Source of the DNA: Anaerolineae bacterium
GTDB lineage: Bacteria > Chloroflexota > Anaerolineae > B4-G1 > DUEL01
Assembly: GCA_034434635.1 (NCBI GenBank)
Contig: DAOTYX010000130.1
Coordinates: 1-36,349, forward strand
DNA length: 36,349 nucleotides
Direction: 5' to 3'
The position numbers and the translations under genes are program-made. The stretch's first letter is position 1, and each line of letters begins with the position of its first letter. The notes beneath the pieces are model-generated. The model searched no databases and was not told where the DNA came from. It was given only the letters and a program-made list of their open reading frames with translations. Below, in pieces: positions 2,071-33,729 of the stretch.

Positions 2071-3024
2071 ATGCACGGGATGATCAAACTGTTCGGTGGC
2101 ACTGGCTGTCCAGACCTGGCGGAGGAGATCAGCCGCTACCTGGATGTGCCGCTCTCGGGGCGTGACATCATTCGCTTCCCCAACGAGAATATCTTCGTCC
2201 GCCTTCACGAGAGCGTGCGCGGTCAAGACGTCTTCCTGATCCAGACTACCGCCTCGCCGGTCAATGAGAACATCATGGAGCTGCTGATCTTCCTGGACGC
2301 CCTGCGGCGCGCTTCGCCTGACCGCATCACCGTTGTGGTACCCTATCTGGCCTATGGCCGGTCGGACAAGAAGGACCAGCCGCGCGTGCCCATCACTGCC
2401 CGGCTGGTCGCCGACCTGATCACCACCGCTGGCGCCGATCGGTACATCACCCTCGACCTGCACGCCGATCAGATTCAGGGCTTCTTCAGCATCCCCGGCG
2501 ACGCGTTGACCGCCTTCTCGATCTTCGCCGACTACCTTAAGGCCAAGCAACTGGATGAGGCAGTGGTTGTGGCCGCCGACCTGGGCTTCGCCAAGAAGGC
2601 GCGCAACCTGGCGGAGGAACTGGAACTGCCGCTGGCGGTGATCGAGAAACGGCGCGTGGGGCGGGAGACCGAAGCGCTCACCCTGGTCGGTGATGTCGAG
2701 GGTCAGGATGCGATCATCGTGGATGATGAGGTGGACACGGCTGGTTCCATCGTCAACGCCGTGCGGGTAGTTCGGGAAGGAGGCGCGCGCGACGTCTACC
2801 TGTGCTTTGCCCACGCTGTCTTCTCGCCACCGGCGGCAGAGCGGCTGCGGAGTCTGGCATTGAGGGAGATCATCACCAGCAACTCCATCCCGGTGGCGCC
2901 GGAGAACCGCATGCCCAACCTCACCGTGCTGTCGGTCGCTCCGTTGTTAGGGGAAGTCATCCGTCGCGTTCACGAGGGGAGCAGCGTGGGGGAGGTCTTC
3001 CGCCGCTATCACCGTTATCGCTGA
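2071..3024 (+). CDS. prs: Ribose-phosphate pyrophosphokinase (PRPP synthetase).
   Basis: Conserved motifs: IKLFGG...PDLAEEI, VVPYLAYGRSDKKD, DLHADQIQGFF, and the PRPP-binding loop IIVDDEVDTAGS. The ATG at 2071 follows a GGGGGAAGAG Shine-Dalgarno-like sequence; GTG 2044 is an alternative start. Confidence 0.9.
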   Translation: MHGMIKLFGGTGCPDLAEEISRYLDVPLSGRDIIRFPNENIFVRLHESVRGQDVFLIQTTASPVNENIMELLIFLDALRRASPDRITVVVPYLAYGRSDKKDQPRVPITARLVADLITTAGADRYITLDLHADQIQGFFSIPGDALTAFSIFADYLKAKQLDEAVVVAADLGFAKKARNLAEELELPLAVIEKRRVGRETEALTLVGDVEGQDAIIVDDEVDTAGSIVNAVRVVREGGARDVYLCFAHAVFSPPAAERLRSLALREIITSNSIPVAPENRMPNLTVLSVAPLLGEVIRRVHEGSSVGEVFRRYHRYR

Positions 3025-3565: not shown

Positions 3566-3650
3566 CGAAGAGAGTCAGCGGATTTAGCAGATGAAGCGGA
3601 TTTGTCTACAGAAATCCGCTGAATCTGCTCAATCTGCTGACCGATTCCTC
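3566..3650. repeat. Copy 1 of a composite palindromic repeat element built from 9-mer units GCAGATTNA / GCGGATTTN.
   Basis: tcagcggatttagcagatgaagcggattt-gtctaca-gaaatccgctgaatctgctcaatctgctgac. Three 9-mers sit on each arm in inverted orientation. The copy lies in the intergenic region between the GNAT start and the mreB stop. Confidence 0.7.
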
Positions 3651-3721
3651 GCTTTTGGCACTCTGAACCAGGAACAACACTCAAGAGGGAGACTACCAAG
3701 ACATCGGAAGCCTGGAAATCC

Positions 3722-12349: not shown

Positions 12350-12372
12350 CGTGAGGTGAGGTGAGTGAGGTG
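12350..12372. repeat. (GTGAG)n pentanucleotide microsatellite, about six units.
   Basis: Reads gtgag gtgag gtgag tgag gtgag gtgag gtgac. It abuts the 22-bp hairpin at 12370-12418. Confidence 0.8.
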
Positions 12373-12418
12373 AGGTGAGGTGACAGTCACCTGGAAGGTG
12401 ACTGTCACCTCACCTCAC
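12370..12418 (-). terminator. Perfect 22-bp stem / 5-nt loop hairpin immediately after the SPFH gene stop. Probably a U-tract-less terminator or an mRNA-stabilising hairpin.
   Basis: GTGAGGTGAGGTGACAGTCACC - tggaa - GGTGACTGTCACCTCACCTCAC. It begins 2 nt after the stop codon at 12421-12423. No T-run follows on the transcribed strand. Confidence 0.4.
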
Positions 12419-12420
12419 GT

Positions 12421-13311
12421 CTATTCCCTGCGCGGGGCCAGCGGCCCCAGCAGGCTGGCGAACTCCAGCGGGAAGATGAACTTGGTCGCCGGACTCTCCC
12501 CCAGCCGCTTGAGCGTCTCCAGGTATTGCAGGGTCATCGTGTTGGGATCCACCTGCTGGGCGATGCCGTAGATGTGCTGCAACGCCACGGCGTACCCCTC
12601 AGCGCGCAGCGCCTGGGCGGCTCGCTCGCCCTCGGCGCGCAGGATGTTGGCCTGCTTCTCGCCTTCGGCCTGCAGGATGCTGGCTTGCTTCTGTCCCTCG
12701 GCCACCTTGATCGCTGCCTCGCGCTGCCCGTCCGCCTCGGTGACCATCGCCCGGCGGTTCCGCTCCGCCGACATCTGGCGGTTCATCGCTGCCTGGATCT
12801 CCTTCGGCGGCTCGATCTCGCGGATCTCCACACTGGTCACCTTGACGCCCCAGCGCTCGGTCACCTCGTCCAGTTTGACCCGCAGCACCTGGTTGATGTG
12901 CTCCCGCTGGGCCAGCACGTCGTCCAGCATGATGTCGCCGATCACCGCGCGCAGGGTGGTGGTGGCGATGCCGATCGAGGCGCGGCGGAAGTCCCCGACC
13001 TGCAAGACACTGCTTTCAGGATCCACCACCTTCCAGTAGATGAGGAAATCAACGCCGATGGGCGCGTTGTCTTTGGTGATGCTGGTCTGGTGAGGGATCT
13101 CCAGAAACTGCTCCCGCAGGTCGGCCTGCACCGCACGGTCAATGAAGGGGATGAGGATGACCAGCCCCGGCCCCTTAGCCCCGATGCAGCGGCCCAGGCG
13201 GAAGACAACCAGCCGTTCGTACTCCCGCACGATGCGGATCATCGAGAAGAGGAGGATGAGGAAGACGATGGCGACGAAGCCCAGGATGAAGAACAGAGCA
13301 ACCCATTCCAT
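12421..13311 (-). CDS. SPFH / band-7 (stomatin-prohibitin-like, slipin) family protein.
   Basis: N-terminal transmembrane helix, then the SPFH core (RIVREYERLVVFRLGR...ITKDNAPIGVDFLIYWKVVDP) and a coiled-coil AEGEKQA-repeat C-terminus. ATG preceded by AGGAGGA. Confidence 0.85.
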   Translation of the reverse strand: MEWVALFFILGFVAIVFLILLFSMIRIVREYERLVVFRLGRCIGAKGPGLVILIPFIDRAVQADLREQFLEIPHQTSITKDNAPIGVDFLIYWKVVDPESSVLQVGDFRRASIGIATTTLRAVIGDIMLDDVLAQREHINQVLRVKLDEVTERWGVKVTSVEIREIEPPKEIQAAMNRQMSAERNRRAMVTEADGQREAAIKVAEGQKQASILQAEGEKQANILRAEGERAAQALRAEGYAVALQHIYGIAQQVDPNTMTLQYLETLKRLGESPATKFIFPLEFASLLGPLAPRRE

Positions 13312-19771: not shown

Positions 19772-21945
19772 CGGCTCCTGCCTCTGAGCAAGAAGACCAC
19801 TGCACCGACGATCATCAGTGCTGCGACGACCCCCTGGGTGAGGGTGAGCGACCGCAGGTAGAGCACCACCCGGCCGCTGCTGCTGCCCAGCCGCGCCTCG
19901 TAGGCTGCCGCTCCGGTCAATCCAGTGACCATCCCCCGTAGCGGGGTGCCCGCGCGCAGGTACGGCCGGGCGACCGGTTCGGAGCGGGCACTGATGCCGG
20001 CCAGAAGGGGTCGGCTGGGACTGCGGGCTGCCATCTGCTCCACCCACGCCTGGAGGTCGCCCTGTTGTCCGGCCAACACCACCACCAGGGCGGCGCTTGT
20101 CGCCGCCGGGCTGTCCAGCGCGTCACGGACACCCAGCGTCTGCCCCGGCCAGTAACCCAGGTTGGCCACCTGTGCAGTGCGCTGGGCCGTGGTGATCAGG
20201 CCGGTGGCCTCCAGATCGGCGAGGAGCCGGTTGGCCAGCGTCGTCCCCTCCGGGCGGGTGCTGACGATGGTCACCTGCGCGCCGCGCTGCAGGAGGTGGT
20301 GCAGTACCGGCTCTGCCACCCGATCCATCTCATCTGCCTCGCCGGGATCGTACTCGAAGGCCACCAGGACGGAGGTGCCGGCTCCAACCGTGGCTTCGAT
20401 CTGGTCGAAGACCTGTGACGCTTCGGCAGCCGGCCCGACGACGGCTTGCGGCGCGGGCTGATCGGGCAAGGAGATGCCGAACATCGGGAGGATGACAGCG
20501 GCCAGGAGCAGCAGGCCGATGAAGGCGTGCTGGAGCGACCAGCCGACCTGAGGGCGCGGGCGTTCGGCCTTTCGAGGCGGAGTTGTCGGGCGGGTGAGCA
20601 GTTCCTGCAACAGTTCGGCGCGGGCGATGCTGGCCGCGCTGGCAGCGACAGGAGCGCCCTTCGCGACCGCCCTGGGTATCCTCTCGGCCAGTGGGCTGGC
20701 CGGGAGCGTCCCGCGCAGCCCTTCGAGCAGCCCGGTGGCCTCTGCTGGCTCCTCGGTAGCAGGAGGGGCCTCAGGCGTCGGGCGAAGGGCCTGCATCCAC
20801 TCGGGGATCTCTGCCGGAGCCAACGCCTCCCGTTCTGGACGGGCGGCAGGAGGTGGGGCAGGCAGGCCTTCCTCCTTTGGCCTCAGTTCGAGCAGCCAGG
20901 AGGGGATCTCCCCGGGCTCGATGGGTCCCAACGGCTCCTCTGTCGTGAAGACGGGCGGCGTGGGTTCTGGTCTCTCCCTGGCCTCCGCCTCCATCCTTGC
21001 CAGTCCTGCCTCCATCTCTGTCAGCCAGGGGGGGACCGTGACCTCTTTCGCGGGCGGGGGTGCGGATGGCACGGGCGGGGATGGGGTCTCTATCTGGCGC
21101 AGCCAGTCGGGGATGTCGGTCGGCGCGGCAGCGGGAGCCGCTGTCTCCGGGCCGCGCAACCAATCGGGCACCTCTCCCTCAAACACGAACGGGGAGGGCC
21201 CGGCAGGGGTTGTCGGCTCGCCGGTCTCCTGCAGTTCACGCAACCAGTCCGGCACGCCAGCCTCTTCGGCGGGGGCAGAGGGCTTCGGCGGTGCAGCGCG
21301 GACTTCGGCTTCGCCTGACGGGGGAGCCGGTTCGGCCGGCGCAGCCGGCCTGCCGGTCCCCTGAAGGTCGCGCAGCCAATCAGGGATTTCCACTTCCTCC
21401 AGCGGCGGGGTTGGGGGAACGGGAGCAGCGGGTGGTGGTGGCGCTCCCGCGCGCAACTCACGCAACCAGTCGGGGAGGTCGCTCTCTGCGGCTGGGGCGG
21501 GGGGAGGAGGCGGAGGCGGCTGTTCATCCGCGGGTGCCAGTAACCCACCAAGCCAGTCGGGGACTGAGGTGGGCTCGGCCTCTTCGGGCGAGGGGGTTGA
21601 AGGCGTGGTGGCCTTCTCTTCGCCCATCGTGGAGCGCAGGTCACTCAACCAATCGGGCTCGGCGGCAGGGGAAGGCCCCCCTTCCTCGAGGGGAATGGTG
21701 GGCAGGGAAAGGCTCCGCAGGGACGGCCTGGTTGGCGAGGTTTCACCCTCCTCATGCTCATCCGCTGGTGCGGCCGAGAGCGGCGTGAGGCGGGCGCCGC
21801 ACCGATCACAGAAGACATTGGCGGTGATGTTCACCGCCCCGCACATCGGGCAACGTAGCCCTGTCTGTGGCAGAGTTGCGCCGCACTCCCGGCAGAAACG
21901 GCTCCCCTCGGGGTTGTCGGCTCCACACTTCGGGCAAGAGATCAT
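19768..21945 (-). CDS. Double zinc-ribbon membrane protein with a tandem PDWLR(E/D)L repeat region, a transmembrane helix, a roughly 240-aa C-terminal domain and a terminal transmembrane helix.
   Basis: N-terminus CPKCG...CRECG...CPMCG...CDRCG (two CxxC-x(n)-CxxC ribbons). About ten repeats of the type (V/I)PDWLRELQ separated by Pro/Ala-rich spacers. Transmembrane segment HAFIGLLLLAAVILPMFGI, and a final segment VVAALMIVGAVVFLLRGRSR. ATG preceded by GAGGCTGG. Confidence 0.7.
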   Translation of the reverse strand: MISCPKCGADNPEGSRFCRECGATLPQTGLRCPMCGAVNITANVFCDRCGARLTPLSAAPADEHEEGETSPTRPSLRSLSLPTIPLEEGGPSPAAEPDWLSDLRSTMGEEKATTPSTPSPEEAEPTSVPDWLGGLLAPADEQPPPPPPPAPAAESDLPDWLRELRAGAPPPPAAPVPPTPPLEEVEIPDWLRDLQGTGRPAAPAEPAPPSGEAEVRAAPPKPSAPAEEAGVPDWLRELQETGEPTTPAGPSPFVFEGEVPDWLRGPETAAPAAAPTDIPDWLRQIETPSPPVPSAPPPAKEVTVPPWLTEMEAGLARMEAEARERPEPTPPVFTTEEPLGPIEPGEIPSWLLELRPKEEGLPAPPPAARPEREALAPAEIPEWMQALRPTPEAPPATEEPAEATGLLEGLRGTLPASPLAERIPRAVAKGAPVAASAASIARAELLQELLTRPTTPPRKAERPRPQVGWSLQHAFIGLLLLAAVILPMFGISLPDQPAPQAVVGPAAEASQVFDQIEATVGAGTSVLVAFEYDPGEADEMDRVAEPVLHHLLQRGAQVTIVSTRPEGTTLANRLLADLEATGLITTAQRTAQVANLGYWPGQTLGVRDALDSPAATSAALVVVLAGQQGDLQAWVEQMAARSPSRPLLAGISARSEPVARPYLRAGTPLRGMVTGLTGAAAYEARLGSSSGRVVLYLRSLTLTQGVVAALMIVGAVVFLLRGRSR

Positions 21946-23869: not shown

Positions 23870-23935
23870 ATGCTGTCTCTGTGACGGCCTCTCATTGAGC
23901 GTTGTTCACGGCACGGAGAGTCGAATGCGGGGAAT

Positions 23936-24010
23936 CTGTCGGCAGATTGAGCAGATTCAGCGGATTCGCAGCGGCATGTATCCGCCCGATCCGCTGAATC
24001 TGCTGGCCCT
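23936..24010. repeat. Copy 2 of the same element, in opposite orientation.
   Basis: gcagattgagcagattcagcggattcg-cagcggcatgtatccgcc-cgatccgctgaatctgctgg. It shares at least 24 identical nt (cagattgagcagattcagcggatt) with the reverse complement of copy 1. It is intergenic, upstream of the operon promoters. Confidence 0.7.
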
Positions 24011-24048
24011 ATACCCCCTCATCGCTTTAGCGGGAGGTCACTCCCGCT

Positions 24049-24945
24049 CTACTCGATGCGGAAGGTCGCCTGGATCTGCCGAAGGAGCGGTGAAAGGCCC
24101 TCCCCTGCCGCCCGCAGCCGCAGCAGGTAGAGCCAGCGGTCATTCCCCTGCACCACCAGCGCCTCCGCCACACCCTGGGGCCAGCGCTCGCTGAAGCGGA
24201 AGCCCCGCGCGGTATTCCACTCCACTGGCTCCACTGCCAGCCGCTCGACTGCTGTGTTGGGTGGCAGGGTGGCTTCCAGGAACATGCTCGCCGTGTCCAG
24301 GTGCAGTGGCTTGGCCGGGCCGGGCGCCCACCACAGTTCCACGGTCTCTTCGTCGCGGCTCCATACCCGCCCGCCGGCAACTTCGTCGCCGCTCTGCTGC
24401 ACCTCCCCGAAGGCCTGGGGGATGGCAAGGCTCACGCCGCTGCGCACCTTGCCGCTCAGGTCGCGCAACGGCAGTGACAAGGGTTGGAACGTCAGCACCC
24501 GCTCACCACGGATCGTCTCCCTGGTCTGGACGAAGACCGTGAGCCACCAGTCTCCTGGTTGGGGGAAAAGGGGCAGGTAGAGAAGGGTCGGAGCCGTGTA
24601 GGTGTCCCCCTCTCCCCGAAGCAGGTCGGAGGACCAGTATTGGTGATGGCGGGGGTCGCTCACCCGCACCCAGACGCGGGCCCCGGGGTCGCGCTGGGCT
24701 AGCCCTGGCAGGTCGGCGGCGATGGGCACGCCCTCCAGTGCCGAGACCGCTGCCGGGAAGTGCAAGGTCAGCGGGATGGGGGGGATGGGGGTGGGGGTCG
24801 GAGTGGGTCGGGGCGTCGCCGTGGGCGCAGGGGGGAGCGTGGGCGAAGGGGGTGCCGTCGCACATCCGGCGCAGACAAGAGCGGTCAGGGCAGCGCAGGC
24901 CAGGAGCCATGGGGAGAGACGGTGGGGAAAGCGGCGCACGCTCAA
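24049..24945 (-). CDS. Putative lipoprotein with a Pro/Thr-rich linker, unknown function.
   Basis: TTG/GTG start overlapping the hflX stop. N-terminus MSVRRFPHRLSPWLLACAALTALVCAGC (signal peptide plus lipobox-like Cys), then a PTPTP linker. Confidence 0.55.
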   Translation of the reverse strand: MSVRRFPHRLSPWLLACAALTALVCAGCATAPPSPTLPPAPTATPRPTPTPTPIPPIPLTLHFPAAVSALEGVPIAADLPGLAQRDPGARVWVRVSDPRHHQYWSSDLLRGEGDTYTAPTLLYLPLFPQPGDWWLTVFVQTRETIRGERVLTFQPLSLPLRDLSGKVRSGVSLAIPQAFGEVQQSGDEVAGGRVWSRDEETVELWWAPGPAKPLHLDTASMFLEATLPPNTAVERLAVEPVEWNTARGFRFSERWPQGVAEALVVQGNDRWLYLLRLRAAGEGLSPLLRQIQATFRIE

Positions 24946-26604: not shown

Positions 26605-29490
26605 CTATTTCTCCTTGTACTGCTCTGGAAATTGCTCGACTGGCCACGACTGCGCCAGCCAGTCTGCGGCAGCAGACGGCAGCCCGGTCAGCGGCCCACG
26701 GCGGATTGTCGGTCCGGGCAGGGAAGTCAGGAACACCTGCCCGTAAGATTTGCTCACCAGCCGCCGGTCGAAGACGGCGACCACTCCGCGGTCGCTGCGG
26801 CTGCGGATGAGCCGCCCGAACCCCTGGAGGAAGAGCAACACGGCCTCGGGCACAGTGTACTCGTTGAACGCGTCGTCGAAGGTTTCCGAGCGGGCAGCGA
26901 CGATAGGGTCGCTGGGAACGCTGAAAGGTAGTTTGGTGATGACCAGGCAACTCAACGCCTGGCCTGGCACGTCCACGCCTTCCCAGAAACTGCGCGTGCC
27001 CAGAAGCACCGCCTGCTCGGTAGTGCGGAAGTTCTCCAGCAACTGGTTGCGCGAGAGGCCATGCCCCTGGGCGTAGACGGTGATGCCGGCCTGGGCCAAC
27101 GGCGCAGTGATCGCGCGAGCCGTGGTGCGGAGCTGGTTGTAGGAAGTGAATAGCGCCAGGGCTCGGCCGCGCGTGGCGCGAAACAGCGCCACCAGGCCCT
27201 GCTCCACCATCCGTTGGTAGCCTTGCTCATTCGGTTCGGGAATGTCGTCCACGATGTAGAGCAGGGTGGAATTGCGGAAATCGAACGGCGAATCCACTGC
27301 CACTTCTTCGGCGTCCCAGGCGTGCAACCTCTGGCGCAGGTAGTCGAAAGTGCCGGCAGTGCGCAGGGTGGCTGAAGTGAGGATGACGGATTCTTTCTTG
27401 TGGAAAAGGTGCGCTTCGACCAGCGGCCCGACGTGCAACGGCGCCGCGTGCAGGGATAGGGGGGTCGTCCCCGGCCCCCGCTCCAGCCAGTAGATGGTGG
27501 CGGCATGCGGCTGGGTGACGAAGGTGTTGAGGTGATCGTGGACCTCGGCCAGTCGGCGGGCCAGGCCCAGGAGTTGAGCCTCCAGGTCGTCGGCTTTCTT
27601 CAGGCCCAGGGAGGCCAGGTCGGAGAGGCCACCGGCCAGCCGCTCCAGGCTGTCGGCGACGGCGGCCAGCGGGTCGGCCGCGTCGTCCCAGGCTATCTCC
27701 ACGCTGTCCCAGGCAGGTTGAGCCCGCTGGGCCCCGGTCACACGCAGCACGCTGGCATACTGGCTCTGCTGGCTCTCCTGCTCCTCGGCAGTGAACTGTT
27801 CCAGGCGCTCGAAGAAGTTGTCGAGGGCGCGGGCGGCGCGCTCGGCGGCGTGCGCTGTCTGGCGGGCGAACTCCGTCACCTTGCCCAGCACCGCGTCGTC
27901 GAGACGCGCTGCCCGACAGCGGGCCACCACTTCGCCCAGCAGGCCGGTGAAGGGGGCGGCGCCGTGGACTGGAACCCGTCCCTCCTGTCGCCCGGCCTCA
28001 TCCAGCAGACGGTGAAGCGATGTGCGGTCCGTGCTGAAGGAGAGGCCACTGGTAGTGGCCGCTTCCAGATGATGGGCCTCATCCACGATCAGGTAGCGAT
28101 AGTCCGGCAGGGCGCGGTTCTGCACGGCCACGTCGGCCAGCAGCAGGGCGTGGTTGACGATGATCAGGTGGGCCGCCTCCGCCGCCTGTCGGGCGCGGTA
28201 GAAGAAGCAGGAGCCACGGTGAAAATGAGCGCAGCGCTCCGGGTCGCAGCCGTCGAAGTCCGCCGACAGGTCCCGCCAGACCGCCTGCTCGGCAGCGGTC
28301 GGCAGGAAGAGCCGGTCGCCGTCGCCGTCTATGGTGTGGGGCAGCCAGACCAGAACGCGGGCCAGGACGTCCATCACCTGCGCCGAGGATGGCCCGGTGC
28401 GCCGCAGGGTGTCCAGACGGGCCGGGCAGAGGTAGTGGGAGCGCCCCTTGAGCACCGCTGCCGAGAAGTCCAACCCCAGCGTGCGCGCCAGGTCGGGCAG
28501 GTCCTTGTGGTACAACTGCTCCTGCAGGTTGATGGTGTTGGTGGAGATGACCACCCGTTCGGAATTCTGGATCGCCCAGTGGACGGCGGGGATCAGGTAG
28601 GCCAGTGACTTACCGACGCCGGTGGGAGCCTCGACGAGCAGGTGGCGTCCCTCGTTGAGCGCGCGGGCCACCTGGCGTAGCATCTCCACCTGCTGGGGGC
28701 GGTGCTCATAGCCAGGGAAGCGACGGGCGAAGGGACCTCCTTTTTCGAGATAAGCCGCCAGCGCTTCCGGGTCTACTGGCCGATGCTCTTCCTCCGGCTC
28801 CAGCGGTATGGAGAGGGTGGGGGGAACCAACACCGGCGCACCCTCCTCGCGTCCGTACTTGGCGGCCAGCTGCGCGCCGATGGTACCGGAGAAGCCCCCC
28901 TGGGAGAGCCGACGCAGCGCCTGACGGAAGAAACTTGCCGCCGGCCAGTTCACCCGCTCGCCCAGGCGCACCAGTTCCTCCAGAAGCGAGGCGGGAAGGG
29001 CCTGGGCCCGCTCGAACAGGGCCAGGAAGAGCCGATGGGTGGTGTGCGCATCATCGAGGGCGCGGTGCGCTCCGGTCGGAGAGAGATTGAACAACGCGGC
29101 CAGTTCACCCAGGCTGTAGCGACGGGCATCAGGGGCCAAAACAGTCGCCAGGCTGAAGGTGTCCAGGACCCCGTTGGAGCCCAGAGAGGAACTGTGTTGC
29201 AGGAACCCCAGGTCGAAGCGGACGTTGTGGCCGACCAGTACACAATCGCCGATAAAGCGCACCAGGCGCGGCAGCACTTCTGGCAATCGTGGGGCGCCTG
29301 CCACGTCGTCATCGGTGATACCGGTCAGGGCAACGATGTCAGGGGGGAGGCGACGTCCGGGGTTGACCAGCGTGCCGAACTCGCCCAGCACCTGCTCGTC
29401 GCGGAACTTCACCGCGCCGATCTCGATGATGGCGTCCCGCTCGCTGTCCAGACCGGTCGTCTCCAGGTCTAGGGCAACGTAGACCGGCAA
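26605..29490 (-). CDS. dinG: Bifunctional 3'-5' exonuclease / ATP-dependent DNA helicase DinG: a DnaQ-like DEDDh exonuclease N-domain fused to a DinG/Rad3-family helicase.
   Basis: Exonuclease motifs VALDLETTGL (exo I), VGHNVRFDLGFL (exo II) and HRALDDA (exo III). Helicase Walker A APTGVGKS and DEAH box (IVDEAHHL). 961 aa. The TTG start is preceded by AAAGGAG. Confidence 0.85.
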   Translation of the reverse strand: MPVYVALDLETTGLDSERDAIIEIGAVKFRDEQVLGEFGTLVNPGRRLPPDIVALTGITDDDVAGAPRLPEVLPRLVRFIGDCVLVGHNVRFDLGFLQHSSSLGSNGVLDTFSLATVLAPDARRYSLGELAALFNLSPTGAHRALDDAHTTHRLFLALFERAQALPASLLEELVRLGERVNWPAASFFRQALRRLSQGGFSGTIGAQLAAKYGREEGAPVLVPPTLSIPLEPEEEHRPVDPEALAAYLEKGGPFARRFPGYEHRPQQVEMLRQVARALNEGRHLLVEAPTGVGKSLAYLIPAVHWAIQNSERVVISTNTINLQEQLYHKDLPDLARTLGLDFSAAVLKGRSHYLCPARLDTLRRTGPSSAQVMDVLARVLVWLPHTIDGDGDRLFLPTAAEQAVWRDLSADFDGCDPERCAHFHRGSCFFYRARQAAEAAHLIIVNHALLLADVAVQNRALPDYRYLIVDEAHHLEAATTSGLSFSTDRTSLHRLLDEAGRQEGRVPVHGAAPFTGLLGEVVARCRAARLDDAVLGKVTEFARQTAHAAERAARALDNFFERLEQFTAEEQESQQSQYASVLRVTGAQRAQPAWDSVEIAWDDAADPLAAVADSLERLAGGLSDLASLGLKKADDLEAQLLGLARRLAEVHDHLNTFVTQPHAATIYWLERGPGTTPLSLHAAPLHVGPLVEAHLFHKKESVILTSATLRTAGTFDYLRQRLHAWDAEEVAVDSPFDFRNSTLLYIVDDIPEPNEQGYQRMVEQGLVALFRATRGRALALFTSYNQLRTTARAITAPLAQAGITVYAQGHGLSRNQLLENFRTTEQAVLLGTRSFWEGVDVPGQALSCLVITKLPFSVPSDPIVAARSETFDDAFNEYTVPEAVLLFLQGFGRLIRSRSDRGVVAVFDRRLVSKSYGQVFLTSLPGPTIRRGPLTGLPSAAADWLAQSWPVEQFPEQYKEK

Positions 29491-29680: not shown

Positions 29681-30073
29681 TCAGCCTTCGCCGTTGAGCC
29701 ACGCTTGCAGCCGTTGCCAGAGTGAGGGGGAGGTTGGCGATGCTGGTGGGGCGGCGGGGGTGGGTGTGGCGGCGGAGGGGGTTAACGGCACAGAGAGGAC
29801 GACCTCGCCAGGCCGTGCCCAGCCCAGATGGACGCGGGCCCACTTTTCGGCGGACTCGGTCAGCGAGGTGCCGCTTTGTTGGTCCAGCAGCGAGGCGTGA
29901 TGCTCCTCGGCGCTGGCAAGGAGGGGCTGCAGCGCTGCCTCGGTGGCGCGGATCTTTTCCAGGCGGACCTCCAGTTGCCAGATGCCATGGACCAGGCTGG
30001 CGATGATGGCCAGTCCAACCACAGCGATCACGGCCATTGCCCAGACCTCGCGGCTGATCTGTACGGGCTTCAT
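29681..30073 (-). CDS. Small membrane-anchored coiled-coil protein, FtsB/DivIC-like (septum formation initiator family). Tentative.
   Basis: N-terminal transmembrane helix (WAMAVIAVVGLAIIASLV), then a heptad-like region (LEVRLEKIRATEAALQPLL) and a Pro/Thr-rich tail. ATG preceded by AGGAGGAG. Confidence 0.45.
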   Translation of the reverse strand: MKPVQISREVWAMAVIAVVGLAIIASLVHGIWQLEVRLEKIRATEAALQPLLASAEEHHASLLDQQSGTSLTESAEKWARVHLGWARPGEVVLSVPLTPSAATPTPAAPPASPTSPSLWQRLQAWLNGEG

Positions 30074-30095
30074 CCTCTCACTCCTCCTGTATTAT

Positions 30096-30123
30096 ATGAT
30101 ACTGATAATCGCTGTTTCGTCAA
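30096..30123 (-). promoter_or_regulatory. Strong candidate promoter for the FtsB-like gene.
   Basis: The minus strand reads TTGACG, a 16-nt spacer, then TATCATATAAT, then AGGAGGAG ATG. Confidence 0.45.
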
Positions 30124-30159
30124 GAGAGAGTGCCTCTGAGGTGTGTCCCAATTTTGTCG

Positions 30160-30193
30160 GGCTGGCCGCTTTGTAGGACAACTGCTCGCAGTT
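30160..30193. promoter_or_regulatory. Perfect 15-bp inverted repeat with a 4-nt spacer: TTTGTAGGACAACTG-ctcg-CAGTTGTCCTACAAA. A candidate operator, or a hairpin.
   Basis: It lies about 40 bp upstream of the -35 box of the ftsB-like promoter and is flanked by CTGGCC on both sides. Confidence 0.4.
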
Positions 30194-30220
30194 GTCCTAC
30201 AAACCTGGCCAGGCCTTTCT

Positions 30221-30500
30221 CCGGTGGGCGGGGCATCGAGATGCCGCCCCTACGGCGTCGGCGGGCGGGACGTCCCGATGCGTTGGCGGGGCGGCATAAG
30301 GGTGCCGCCCTGCGGTATACCCCGTAGCCGACGCATCCCTATGCGTCGGCGGGCGGCACGGGGGTGCCGCCCCTACGGTGTCGACGGGTCCTGGAGAGGG
30401 GCGGGGGGCGGCCCCTGGCAATGGTGTTGGCAGCGATGGGGGCCGCCCCCTCCTCTCGTGACGGGGAAGCCGGTTGCGGGCGGGCAGGTCACGCAGGCAG
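30221..30500. repeat. Array of at least four degenerate GC-rich hairpin repeat units (period about 60-70 nt) in an ORF-free region.
   Basis: Units of the form GGGCGGCA-loop-TGCCGCCCCTACGGyGTCGrCGGG recur at about 30227, 30290, 30350 and 30420. There are additional palindromes GGGACGTCCC and CCGACGCAT-ccct-ATGCGTCGG. Repeats are not identical and spacing is not regular. Confidence 0.5.
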
Positions 30501-31142
30501 CGATGAGGCAGCGATGTCGCGCGGACGCTCCCTACCCGCAGGCCAGCAACTCTCCCCGTCCCTGCAGACTGCGCCCGATGACAGGTCAGCCGTTGGCGCA
30601 TCCTCCCTGCATCGGGTCGCCTGACAGGCGGTGGCATGTGTGCGTTGTGGCTGTCATTATGCCTCCTTGAGTTTGGTTCAGCCTCCCACTTGAGCGCTGG
30701 CGGTTTCGAAGGCCGTCTTCTCGCAACGCCCGGGCGGAGGGCTGCTGCTATTTGAAACGCAGTATACGGGATGCCTATACACCAAACTATACTCAGAGAG
30801 GGTGGGGCGATTGCCTATGATTTCATAGGCATAATGGGATGGGCGAGGTCAGGCCGCGGTTTTGCCTGTCCTCGGATAGGCTCTAAGTTACAAACAATTG
30901 TAGACTGAGGCGGGTGGTACATTTCCTAAAACAATATACAATCACCACGGGCAGGTCCCCTGTAGCACAGGCAATTAGCCTGTCCTGCTCGAAGAGGGCT
31001 CTCGGCGGGTCTGTGACCTGCTGAACGTCGGCCACAGACCGGCATTGAGCAATGGCGGCAGTAACAATATGCAGTCATGCCTGACTGGCAGGTTTTCGAA
31101 CTGCAGGCGCGCGTTTCAACGTTCCTACATCGTGAGGGTGCT

Positions 31143-31952
31143 ATGCCGATACCGCTTTCGCTGGCTCCCTACCTGCGGGGTGGGGGTATCGTCCTGCTGA
31201 GCGCCTCCATCGTCTCCCTGGTGATCAGTATCCTCTGTTTTCATCGCGCTCGTGTTGACACGTATTATTTCCTGCGCGAGAATGCCCGGCGCGCTGGCCT
31301 GCGCTGGCTCAGCGTCAGCCTGCCGCTGGTGGTCCTGGGGTTGGTGGCGCTCTTCCTGCCAGTGGGCCCGTCGGCAACCCCGCCGCTCACCGCCGCGCCA
31401 TCCCCCACGCTCTCGCCGACCGCTCTGGTTAGCCCTTCGGCTGTGCCCACCCGCGCGCCCACAGCCACCCCGCGCCCCTCGGCCACCCCGCCCCCCCGCC
31501 CGACGGCCACCCCTTCGCCCAGCCCGACGCCCACGCCATTCTACCCCCTGCCTGAAGGAGCCTCTGTCCGACTGCCAGGTGCTACTCCCGCCGGGCCTGA
31601 GGCGCAGATCGTCCTGCGCACCTTCGCCCTGGGTGAGGCGGCAGGCCAACCGGTCTCGCCTGGCACGACCTTCCCGGCGGGGGACTACCGCGTCTATCTC
31701 TTCTTCGACTATAGCGGGATGGAACCCGGCATTACCTGGACCTACGGCTGGTATCGGGAGGGGGAGTATATGGACGGCAACACCTGCCCGTGGGGGACGA
31801 CACGGGCGGACTGTCCGCACGTTGGCCGGCGGGCAGGCAGCACGTATCTCTTCTACCGTCGGCCTGAGGGGTATGATCCAGGGGTCTACGCGGTGCGCAT
31901 CTGGATCGAGGACCGGTTGCAGGGGACGCTGGAGTTCAGCGTCACCGAATAG
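31143..31952 (+). CDS. Membrane protein with two transmembrane helices, a Pro/Thr-rich linker and a roughly 130-aa C-terminal domain of unknown function.
   Basis: The ATG at 31143 is preceded by GAGGGTG. Transmembrane helices GIVLLSASIVSLVISILCF and LSVSLPLVVLGLVALFL, then a (PTxTP)n linker. Confidence 0.55.
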   Translation: MPIPLSLAPYLRGGGIVLLSASIVSLVISILCFHRARVDTYYFLRENARRAGLRWLSVSLPLVVLGLVALFLPVGPSATPPLTAAPSPTLSPTALVSPSAVPTRAPTATPRPSATPPPRPTATPSPSPTPTPFYPLPEGASVRLPGATPAGPEAQIVLRTFALGEAAGQPVSPGTTFPAGDYRVYLFFDYSGMEPGITWTYGWYREGEYMDGNTCPWGTTRADCPHVGRRAGSTYLFYRRPEGYDPGVYAVRIWIEDRLQGTLEFSVTE

Positions 31953-31999: not shown

Positions 32000-32659
32000 T
32001 CACAGACACGCCAACAGCACCAGGACGGAGACCGCTGGCACGGTCAGGTTGTCGGTGCCCCAGGGGGAGAGCGCCTCGGCGACGGCAGCGGCTGCCGCCG
32101 TGGCCCAGGCTACCGGCAGGGCGGACCAGCCGGCAAACGGGCTGGCGGGGAGGAGGGCCAGCGGGAGCACGGTAGCAGCCCAGGCGACGACGAAGAAGGC
32201 CAGCGAGCCCTCCAGCGAGCGGGCGCTGCCCAGGAGACGGTAGGTGTGCCGGCCCCAACGGCGGCCCACCACCGCGGCCAACGCGTCCCCCCAGGTCATC
32301 GGCATCAACGCTGCCACCAGCAGCGGCCGCTGCGCCCACAGCAGCCAGGTGAGGATGGAGAAGGAGATGGGGAAGTAGATCGTGCCCAGTTTCCCGCGCT
32401 CGCTCAACTCCATCCCCTTGAAGGTCCCTTTCCAGTAGGAGAAGGTGTTGATGAAGATGAATGAGATGGGAGGGATGAGGGCCATCCAGCGATTGGTGAA
32501 CAGGAGGAGGATGTAGGCGGTCATGCCAGCAGCGATGTGGACGACCTTGCGGGTGAAGTCCACCGGGTAACCCTGCCGGCGGCGCAGCCACTCCGCCACG
32601 CCGAGCGCGGCGAAGAGGTAGAGATAGGAGAGGAGGAGGACGGGGAAATCTCTGGTCAT
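32000..32659 (-). CDS. CTP-transferase-1 (CdsA / phosphatidate cytidylyltransferase) family membrane protein, possibly a polyprenol/dolichol-kinase-like enzyme.
   Basis: Multi-transmembrane protein. WGDALAAVVGRRWGRHTY matches the CdsA-family signature (S/G)D.(G/A)A..(V/F)G+.(F/W)G+H. At 219 aa it is shorter than canonical CdsA. ATG preceded by GAGAGGCGAG. Confidence 0.5.
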   Translation of the reverse strand: MTRDFPVLLLSYLYLFAALGVAEWLRRRQGYPVDFTRKVVHIAAGMTAYILLLFTNRWMALIPPISFIFINTFSYWKGTFKGMELSERGKLGTIYFPISFSILTWLLWAQRPLLVAALMPMTWGDALAAVVGRRWGRHTYRLLGSARSLEGSLAFFVVAWAATVLPLALLPASPFAGWSALPVAWATAAAAAVAEALSPWGTDNLTVPAVSVLVLLACL

Positions 32660-32736: not shown

Positions 32737-33729
32737 TCACGCACAGGCTCTCAAGAGGGCCACGGGGTAGACGTAGTCGTCAGGAGGGGCAGTCCCCCAT
32801 CCTCCGATAATCCGCGCATCCACCTTGACAAAGCGAACCATCGGCGGAGTGCTGTTTTCGCGCACGAAGTATCCGAGGTCTGTGCCTGACGCATCCTGGC
32901 GGGCGTAGTATAGCCATAGATTGCCGCTCCCTGCCGGGCTGCGCAGCAGCAGGCGGTCATCATCCCTGGCCCGCAACCAGGTGCGGTCCGCAGGGGGAAT
33001 CTCAAGGATGTGGTAATTCCCCTTGCAGAGGGTGACAGCCCCCCCTTCAGGCAGGGCGTCTACCTCGAAGGTGCGCCCTTCGAGCATGACCCGAGAGACC
33101 AGCACCGGCTCGTCGCGGATATCAAAGTCCGCCACGTAAGCGGGAGGGGCGCTGCTGCCGATGGCGCGGCCAGGCACGACCATCGTCGTGTACAACCCTC
33201 CCTGGTCTTCAGGTTCGGTCAGGGACTCGATGAGTTGGCCGATCCATCCCTTTAATCGTTCGCACTCCCCCGCCTCAGTATTGGCAGCCTTCTGGGTCCA
33301 GAAATCACGCGCGTTCCCGAACCGTCTGCCGGCGTCCTCATACCGATCGAGGGCCTCCGTTTTCTCGCCGAGCAAATGATGAATGAGGGCCAGGTTATAT
33401 TGAGCGACGGCCTCGTTGTGTTGCTGCGCCTGGCTGTGTTGGCGTTGGAGGATATCGGCGGCTGCTTTCGCACAGTCGAGCGCTGGCCCCAATCTGCCCA
33501 TCTCACGGTAGATGTCGCACAGGCAGATGAAAGCCGCAGCGTGTTCGAGACGGCCTGTCGTCTCGCGCCGGAAGCCGCCCAGCAGTTCTTGAGCGATGCG
33601 CTCGGCTTCGCGCAGGTTCCCCTTCTGACGGGCTGTCCTCACGCGCCCCAGCAGCCGACGGGCGGAGCCAGGCATGTTGTCATCCCGGAACAGGTTGGAT
33701 GGCATCAGATCTTCCGTCAGGTAGATCAT
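32737..33729 (-). CDS. TPR-like repeat protein, unknown function.
   Basis: Its ATG overlaps the upstream TGA (ATGA). Helical repeat region (LREAERIAQELL...AAFICLCDIYREMGRLGPALDCAKAA...AQYNLALIHHLLGEKTEALDRYEDAGRRFG), then a beta-rich C-terminus. Confidence 0.5.
   Translation of the reverse strand: MIYLTEDLMPSNLFRDDNMPGSARRLLGRVRTARQKGNLREAERIAQELLGGFRRETTGRLEHAAAFICLCDIYREMGRLGPALDCAKAAADILQRQHSQAQQHNEAVAQYNLALIHHLLGEKTEALDRYEDAGRRFGNARDFWTQKAANTEAGECERLKGWIGQLIESLTEPEDQGGLYTTMVVPGRAIGSSAPPAYVADFDIRDEPVLVSRVMLEGRTFEVDALPEGGAVTLCKGNYHILEIPPADRTWLRARDDDRLLLRSPAGSGNLWLYYARQDASGTDLGYFVRENSTPPMVRFVKVDARIIGGWGTAPPDDYVYPVALLRACA

Follow-up and report, generated by a model that had tools for sequence, protein, structure and literature searches.

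What occupies the 1,069-nt gap (positions 30074–31142) between two divergent genes in a 36,349-nt stretch of DNA from an Anaerolineae bacterium (contig DAOTYX010000130.1, hereafter the window)? The original prediction, made from the letters alone, had described a 1-kb island free of credible open reading frames (ORFs), in which a GC-rich array of hairpin repeats is followed by an AT-rich segment, and had proposed a structured non-coding RNA, a cluster of degenerate repeat elements or a complex regulatory region. The island proved to be real: three independent assemblies of this species agree in showing no called gene across 30073–31143, and such ORFs as the gap contains only translate GC-rich DNA into Arg/Pro/Gly-rich sequences, with no Pfam match. 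The cluster of degenerate repeat elements was the interpretation supported by the analysis, the hairpins being GTAG-tagged palindromes of the repetitive extragenic palindromic (REP) type, arranged like a bacterial interspersed mosaic element (BIME) (PMC3733652). The GC-rich half of the island (30170–30460) can be assigned with good confidence to a BIME-like cluster of GTAG-tagged REP elements, whose origin in this host would have depended on REP-associated tyrosine transposases (RAYTs). A GTAG REP cluster is previously undescribed in this Anaerolineae lineage.

The REPs of the GTAG super-family are short GC-rich stem-loops with a terminal GTAG as their defining mark, and their mobilization by RAYTs is thought likely (PMC3733652, PMC2817692). 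They measure about 20–40 bp with a stem of 6–13 bp, carry tag variants such as GYAG, GTRG and others, and have been reported in Chloroflexi (PMC3733652). The following elements were identified in the array:

30170–30203: P0, a perfect 16+2+16 palindrome, TTT-GTAG-GACAACTGC-TC-GCAGTTGTC-CTAC-AAA.
30228–30253, minus strand: R1, an imperfect REP-type hairpin, GCGGGGCA-TCGAGA-TGCCGCCC, with a CTAC tag (GTAG on the minus strand).
30254–30288: a spacer with the palindrome GGGACGTCCC (30267–30276) and GATGCGTTGGC, a degenerate half of an S-type hairpin.
30289–30315, minus strand: R2, a hairpin, GGGCGGCA-TAAGGG-TGCCGCCC, with the degenerate tag CTGC, whose minus-strand reading, GCAG, corresponds to the GYAG variant.
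30324–30350, plus strand: S1, a GTAG-tagged hairpin, GCCGACGCAT-CCCT-ATGCGTCGGC, in the opposite orientation to the R hairpins.
30351–30376, minus strand: R3, a hairpin, GGGCGGCAC-GGGG-GTGCCGCCC, with a CTAC tag; a copy of R1 and of the R1 3′ flank.
30393–30459: H4, a long GC-rich hairpin with core arms GGGGGCGGCCCC and GGGGCCGCCCCC, a 23-nt loop and no GTAG tag.

The three R-type hairpins (GGGCGGCA-loop-TGCCGCCC) start at 30228, 30289 and 30351, with a spacing of 61–62 nt. Their stems are of 8–9 bp, compared with 10 bp in S1 and 16 bp in P0, the latter being nested in an outer imperfect palindrome (about 30160–30215). S1, on the plus strand, directly abuts R3, on the minus strand, with the GTAG tags pointing outward, and its inner palindrome, CCGACGCAT-ccct-ATGCGTCGG (30328–30349), reads GTAG-CCGACGCAT-CCCT-ATGCGTCGG when the tag is included. 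The pattern GGCGGCA-N6-TGCCGCC, with up to two mismatches, was matched seven times in the window versus 1.3 expected, and three of these matches, two of them exact, lie within 143 nt in the array. Since units 1 and 3 share a 3′ flank of 34 nt (82% identity) that unit 2 does not have, the true period is 123 nt, composed of sub-units of 61 and 62 nt. The units are 73–86% alike and too diverged for Tandem Repeats Finder, which in the island reported only an 11-nt doublet of GGCAGCGATG; this sequence is present three times, at 30429 (inside the H4 loop), 30496 and 30507. The GC content at 30221–30460 is 75%, against a window mean of 66.6%.

This anatomy corrects the earlier description in part. 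At least four related units with a period of 60–70 nt had been proposed, and three hairpins 61–62 nt apart were indeed found, but the putative fourth (30393–30459) is different and shares only GGGCGGC with the others. Similarly, the tail CTACGGyGTCGrCGGG, assigned to every unit, follows units 1 and 3, but unit 2 continues with CTGCGG and then with the opposite GTAG hairpin. The palindromes reported at 30267–30276 and 30328–30349 were confirmed. The perfect 16+2+16 palindrome at 30170–30203 and the GTAG/CTAC tag on nearly every hairpin had been overlooked.

A regular spacing of hairpin repeats and an AT-richer segment adjoining GC-rich repeats might also be expected of a degenerate CRISPR-like array or of a replication origin, respectively. 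The repeats, however, are not identical and the presumed spacers are themselves repeated with the 123-nt period, in agreement with the earlier statement that this is not a canonical CRISPR array; no cas gene was noticed among the called genes at 21143–39346, although no search aimed at cas was made. Regarding an origin, no TTATCCACA-like DnaA box (one mismatch at most) is present in the island, the window contains three such boxes versus two expected, all of them elsewhere, and neither dnaA nor dnaN was seen among the called genes at 21143–39346 and their Pfam matches (1–21142 being without gene calls). This explanation is effectively refuted by the repeat structure and the DnaA-box count.

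The strict GTAG/CTAC tag borders R1, R3 and S1 and lies inside the stem at both ends of P0, and R2 carries the GYAG variant GCAG. The window contains 17 distinct perfect hairpins, of which three are strictly tagged versus about 0.3 expected (P = 0.004; P0, R1 and R2 excluded from the count), and in 452 kb of Anaerolineae-type loci 10 GTAG-tagged perfect hairpins were counted, compared with 0–4 for control tetranucleotides. Four of six features of REPs and BIMEs were found in the array: a short GC-rich palindrome, a GTAG-type end, an extragenic site and a tandem cluster with alternating orientation.

The scan of the metagenome collection covered the R pattern, GTAGGGGCGGCAN{4,8}TGCCGCCC. The R hairpin, GTAG-GGGCGGCA...TGCCGCCC, was detected at no fewer than 144 sites in at least 120 metagenome contigs. 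Among the matches listed, about 100 distinct flank contexts were distinguished and 20 contigs contained two or three copies; a pyrimidine precedes GTAG in 91% of these sites, a G follows the hairpin in 78%, the loop is TATA in 63 of 144, and several groups have longer family-specific flanks in common. Such non-random bases outside the pattern indicate real repeat families and not chance matches. In one contig (L115, Ga0315282_10004815), two inverted R copies, at 2995–3020 on the plus strand and 3575–3600 on the minus strand, bracket an ORF of 151 aa in which both a HUH and a Y-I-x-x-N-P motif are present. It scored 27.4 with Pfam Y1_Tnp (threshold 23) and 89 bits with NCBIfam NF047646, the REP-associated tyrosine transposase family (threshold 80). 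The layout is the classical REP-RAYT-REP of a REPtron. Its tag and stem are identical to those of the window and are placed in inverted orientation around the RAYT gene; by contrast, it belongs to another organism, its loops are longer (TTCGAC and TTCCAC) and the window has no RAYT. A motif filter applied to the 120 pattern loci listed returned no second RAYT besides that of L115.

Closer to the host, two contigs of a single metagenome, L158 and L176, both contain window-like R hairpins. L176 was assigned to Chloroflexota by its TldD homologues, and L158 was not placed taxonomically. In L158 two R hairpins are located 62 nt apart between convergent genes, and L176 contains an R+S double hairpin as in the window. 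A further contig, L216, with a TldD 94% identical to that of L176, lacks the segment of about 290 nt that holds the R+S composite; the element shows a presence/absence polymorphism. P0 was also found outside the window: the 32 nt at 30170–30201 are 100% identical in L210/L211, where an unrelated gene ends immediately before them; the host there is of another Anaerolineae genus, whose homologue of the membrane protein encoded to the right of the island is 48% identical. The original prediction had remarked that a common dispersed REP-type repeat would make the array unremarkable. This applies to the motif as counted across many other genomes, other Chloroflexota included. The exact repeat strings were not found in the literature.

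As a separate observation, the exact 24-mer GTAGGGGCGGCATATATGCCGCCC forms part of two or more longer repeat families, which have around 30 nt or more of conserved flank and up to three copies per 10 kb, one group of loci being L090, L095, L098, L144, L145, L159, L175, L187 and L197, and the other L099, L134, L146, L167, L195, L198 and L205. Several of these contigs are labelled as human-gut metagenome assemblies.

Besides the REPtron of L115, three known systems resemble the array. The GTAG-23 elements of Thermomicrobium roseum, from the same phylum, are likewise short GC-rich stem-loops with stems of 8–10 bp, loops of 2–6 nt and a terminal GTAG or GYAG; they are extragenic, occur in blocks at few loci and form dimers reiterated in tandem with flanking DNA (PMC3733652). 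This likeness covers architecture, tag, location and grouping. The T. roseum elements lie inside CCGSSCC(n3,4)GGSSCGG palindromes, whereas in the window only P0 is nested, and in another sequence. The BIMEs of Escherichia coli are also mosaics in which at least two REP types alternate in orientation, with short conserved linkers and a copy number that varies between strains (summarized in part in PMC2817692). Their sequences are unrelated to those of the window, and they are found mostly at the 3′ ends of genes, in contrast to a cluster located between divergent genes. Integration host factor (IHF), gyrase and Pol I are partners of the E. coli BIMEs and are not known to apply to the window cluster. 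Finally, the S1+R3 pair and the R+S composite of L176 behave as a recurring two-hairpin unit, as do the REPINs of Pseudomonas fluorescens. A REPIN consists of two inverted copies of the same REP, whereas the two hairpins of the window differ in sequence; this resemblance is one of arrangement.

Several points weigh against a REP cluster. In the host DNA examined (the 36-kb window and a 3-kb extension) there is no other copy of R, S or P0, and the only other GTAG-tagged hairpin, at 24029–24052, has a different sequence. No RAYT gene was found in the window by tblastn with the RAYT of L115. The island lies between divergent genes, a less usual position for REPs (PMC3733652), and some 680 nt (30461–31142) and the untagged H4 are not accounted for. 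An additional unit in the same-species contig L005, described below, is the last sequence of that contig and may have arisen in assembly. Contig ends inside the array (30169, 30203, 30349, 30373 and 30378) were considered as proof of genome-wide dispersal and rejected, because internal repeats of 24–34 nt and perfect palindromes alone could break de Bruijn graphs. On the other hand, some species are known to bear REPs without REPtrons (PMC3733652).

The singleton hairpin at 24029–24052, on the minus strand, reads GTAG-AGCGGGAG-tgac-CTCCCGCT; it extends into the 3′ end of the gene at 24049–24939, over the stop codon, and its stem is unlike those of R, S and P0.

The array folds far better than shuffled sequences (z of −6.5 and −7.3), the right half of the island is mildly structured (z about −3), some 680 nt have no other assigned role, and on the plus strand the C-to-T polymorphism at 30309, in a stem, would leave a G-U pair in place. 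These data could fit a structured non-coding RNA or small RNA (sRNA), of which the hairpins would be the helices. The folding signal, however, is as strong on one strand as on the other, as is expected of DNA palindromes. Rfam 15 in gathering mode gave zero matches in the whole window and nothing usable in L213, L009 and L210, and a permissive search of 29900–31300 returned only miRNA and sRNA models with E values of 0.28 or higher, far below their thresholds. The region is absent from all of the relatives examined, it carries single-nucleotide polymorphisms (SNPs), none of them in compensatory pairs, about 20 times as densely as the neighbouring genes, its copy number may vary between contigs, and no good promoter or terminator brackets it. 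The proposal of a structured RNA was not supported by these results, and it is very unlikely that the island or part of it encodes one. In addition, no tRNA or tmRNA was found, no terminator-like site was detected in 30074–31070, and a T run follows none of the hairpins on either strand. P0 has no U tract on either strand, and therefore is not an intrinsic terminator.

The remaining features of the gap and its borders were the following:

29681–30073, minus strand: the left flanking gene, encoding a single-pass membrane protein of 130 aa, called in all same-species contigs.
30096–30123, minus strand: a sigma-70-type promoter of this gene, TTGACG-16-TATCAT, followed by a GGAGGAG ribosome-binding site (10/12 in the consensus scan, the best in the region).
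30461–30700: a spacer of 66% GC with no Pfam or Rfam match.
30657 to 30586, minus strand: a 23-aa mini-ORF (MTATTHTCHRLSGDPMQGGCANG) behind AAGGAGG-4 nt-ATG.
30701–31142, plus strand: the AT-richer segment, 54.5% GC, with small palindromes at 30814–30829 and 30998–31050.
31143–31952, plus strand: the right flanking gene, encoding a membrane protein of 269 aa with a Pro/Thr-rich linker, as given by the gene calls.

The left flanking gene had no Pfam match and is designated ftsB/divIC-like from a reading of its sequence. Its homologues are located upstream of a DinG-like helicase in L026 and L009; in the window, the DinG-like exonuclease-helicase (26605–29490, minus strand) has its best matches in Anaerolineae metagenome-assembled genomes, with 69–71% amino-acid identity, the genome collection searched with it holding no genome of the same species. 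Same-species contigs, which are 99.4–100% identical over the aligned parts, were found in several metagenome assemblies.

These borders allowed the locus to be compared with its relatives. By blastn the island gave no match in 80 loci around DinG homologues, and only short REP matches in all of the other loci. In L026, L009 and L209–L212 the sequence upstream of the homologous genes does not contain it: in L026 a 130-nt gap and a co-directional hypE-like gene precede the ftsB-like homologue, and in L209–L212, fetched from three relative lineages, a co-directional gene lies only about 40–120 nt upstream of the membrane-protein homologue. The genes downstream of the island have counterparts in L212 (69% and 35% identity) and the upstream ones do not; therefore, the island is at a synteny breakpoint. 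Compared with the co-occurring strain L001, eight SNPs were counted in the 1.07-kb island versus two in the coding DNA on its left side (5.4 kb), a rate about 20 times higher. Five of the eight fall within 30581–30700, and none is compensatory. The mini-ORF shows one nonsynonymous difference, H9R, in L001, L214 and L215. The island is lineage-specific, and looks young and weakly constrained. Moreover, contig L005 runs on past R3 into a further copy of the 123-nt unit, and the copy number of the array may vary between co-occurring strains.

Beyond the island, SNPs and indels with respect to L001 also cluster at 32013–32203 and 32742–32941, inside the gene for a 219-aa membrane protein and a TPR-protein gene, which suggests recombination tracts or hypervariable segments between strains.

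A palindromic element common to L009 (189–274; another Anaerolineae genus) and L213 (17459–17543, in this organism, about 2.2 kb past the right end of the window) was also detected, with the structure CCCGCAGGTT-N65-AACCTGCGGG and outer arms GTAACTGC/GCAGTTAC. In L009 it is located just upstream of the ftsB-like promoter, where the window has the REP island. Since the two occupy an equivalent place, the intergenic spot upstream of the ftsB-like gene seems to collect repeats in different lineages.

The promoter at 30096–30123 was assigned to the ftsB-like gene because the same arrangement, TTGACG/TTGACT-17-TATGAT/TATCAT, precedes the homologous gene at the equivalent place in L026 and L009, two other genera. 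It is the one good sigma-70-type site in the gap, and only weak 8/12 matches, with no strong consensus promoter, were obtained in 30700–31142, so the description of this half as promoter-dense was not sustained. Its unusual AT-richness held only in comparison with coding DNA, the GC content falling to 54.5% in 30701–31142, but other intergenic stretches of the window are at 50–60%. Of the two AT-rich palindromes reported, CCTATGATTTCATAGG (30814–30829) is real, but CAATTGTAGACTG is not a palindrome beyond its CAATTG. The segment 30701–31142 would contain the promoter and the 5′ leader of the downstream membrane-protein gene, and 30461–31142 as a whole would be a weakly constrained spacer.

The palindromes could also act as operators, or be bound by transcription factors or nucleoid proteins, in a control region of the two divergent genes. 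The island does lie between divergent promoters, with P0 about 47 nt upstream of the −35 box of the ftsB-like gene, and the palindrome at 30814–30829 and a repeated 15-mer, AACAATATRCARTCA (at 30930 and 31063), are found upstream of the membrane-protein gene. The homologues in L026 and L009, however, keep the promoter and not the palindromes; the 32 nt of P0 recur downstream of an unrelated gene in another genus, the R hairpin is found in about 100 flank contexts among the matches listed, once beside a RAYT, and the array may differ in copy number between strains. A role as control region is accordingly improbable, and the complex regulatory region proposed earlier is true only trivially, since the promoters of both divergent genes have to lie in the gap.

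The two copies of AACAATATRCARTCA (30930–30944 and 31063–31077) are 133 nt apart, the second overlapping an alternative ATG at 31077, and could be binding sites or a chance match. A degenerate tandem duplication in 30850–31090 was also considered and dropped, as its halves align at about 45% identity (an estimate from conserved columns).

Alternatively, the island could be what is left, after decay, of a larger mobile element, either a REPtron that has lost its RAYT or an element of the IS200/IS605 type, with the hairpins as its former ends and the AT-richer part as its eroded interior. Hairpins like its GTAG-tagged ones flank the RAYT of L115, it is lineage-specific and placed at a synteny breakpoint, and the composition of the interior is different (54.5% GC). 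Against this, tblastn with the L115 RAYT found nothing in the window, ten stop-free fragments of 44–77 aa from both strands of 30582–31160 had no Pfam match at E ≤ 1, no match was obtained in the plasmid and phage collections, and no matching set of hairpins is present at the right side of the island. A decayed element is thus an unlikely origin. No remnant of the neighbouring genes of the relatives was detected in the island by tblastn.

Two other repeats of the window lie outside the gap. One, of 72 nt, has two copies inverted with respect to each other and 82% identical (3613–3684 and 23895–23966), in both cases intergenic and beside a long hairpin with a CAGCAGATT..CAGCGGAT stem; it has no Rfam match, was not found in the other loci fetched and looks like a second small dispersed repeat family. 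At 12351–12421, directly 3′ of the gene at 12421–13311 (minus strand), six tandem copies of GTGAG form a run within a palindrome whose 26-nt arms are 96% complementary.

Returning to the BIME-like cluster of GTAG-tagged REPs, its formation may be proposed from what is described for the family. The hairpins, of three types here (R, with three minus-strand copies; S, GTAG-GCCGACGCAT...ATGCGTCGGC, on the plus strand; and P0, GTAG-GACAACTGC), would form on single-stranded DNA, and a RAYT, as a HUH tyrosine transposase, would recognize them and cut beside GTAG, thereby seeding copies at new sites. Local tandem duplication would then enlarge the clusters, in this case by reiteration of the 123-nt block. 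The array is probably a small selfish element and would have no selected function; as selfish or neutral DNA, the cluster would have landed at a rearrangement junction between two conserved blocks of genes, where the membrane-protein gene may have lost its ancestral upstream neighbour, so that the AT-richer end of the spacer would have to supply its promoter and leader. The cluster would then be followed by about 680 nt of weakly constrained spacer. It is doubtful, and rather improbable, that the island plays an active part, either with the REP cluster as a cruciform or topological insulator between divergent genes, one of them a putative cell-division gene, or with the 680 nt as a lineage-specific small RNA or a 23-aa peptide under the control of the hairpins.

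These results take a candidate novel structured RNA off the list and have little significance beyond annotation. The array explains the assembly breaks of this organism at this locus, which marks a synteny breakpoint. With its identification, an uncultured lineage of Anaerolineae joins the few Chloroflexota known to have GTAG-tagged REPs. The hairpin GTAG-GGGCGGCA...TGCCGCCC is common to many metagenomic genomes that are not related to one another, at least one of which pairs it with a RAYT.

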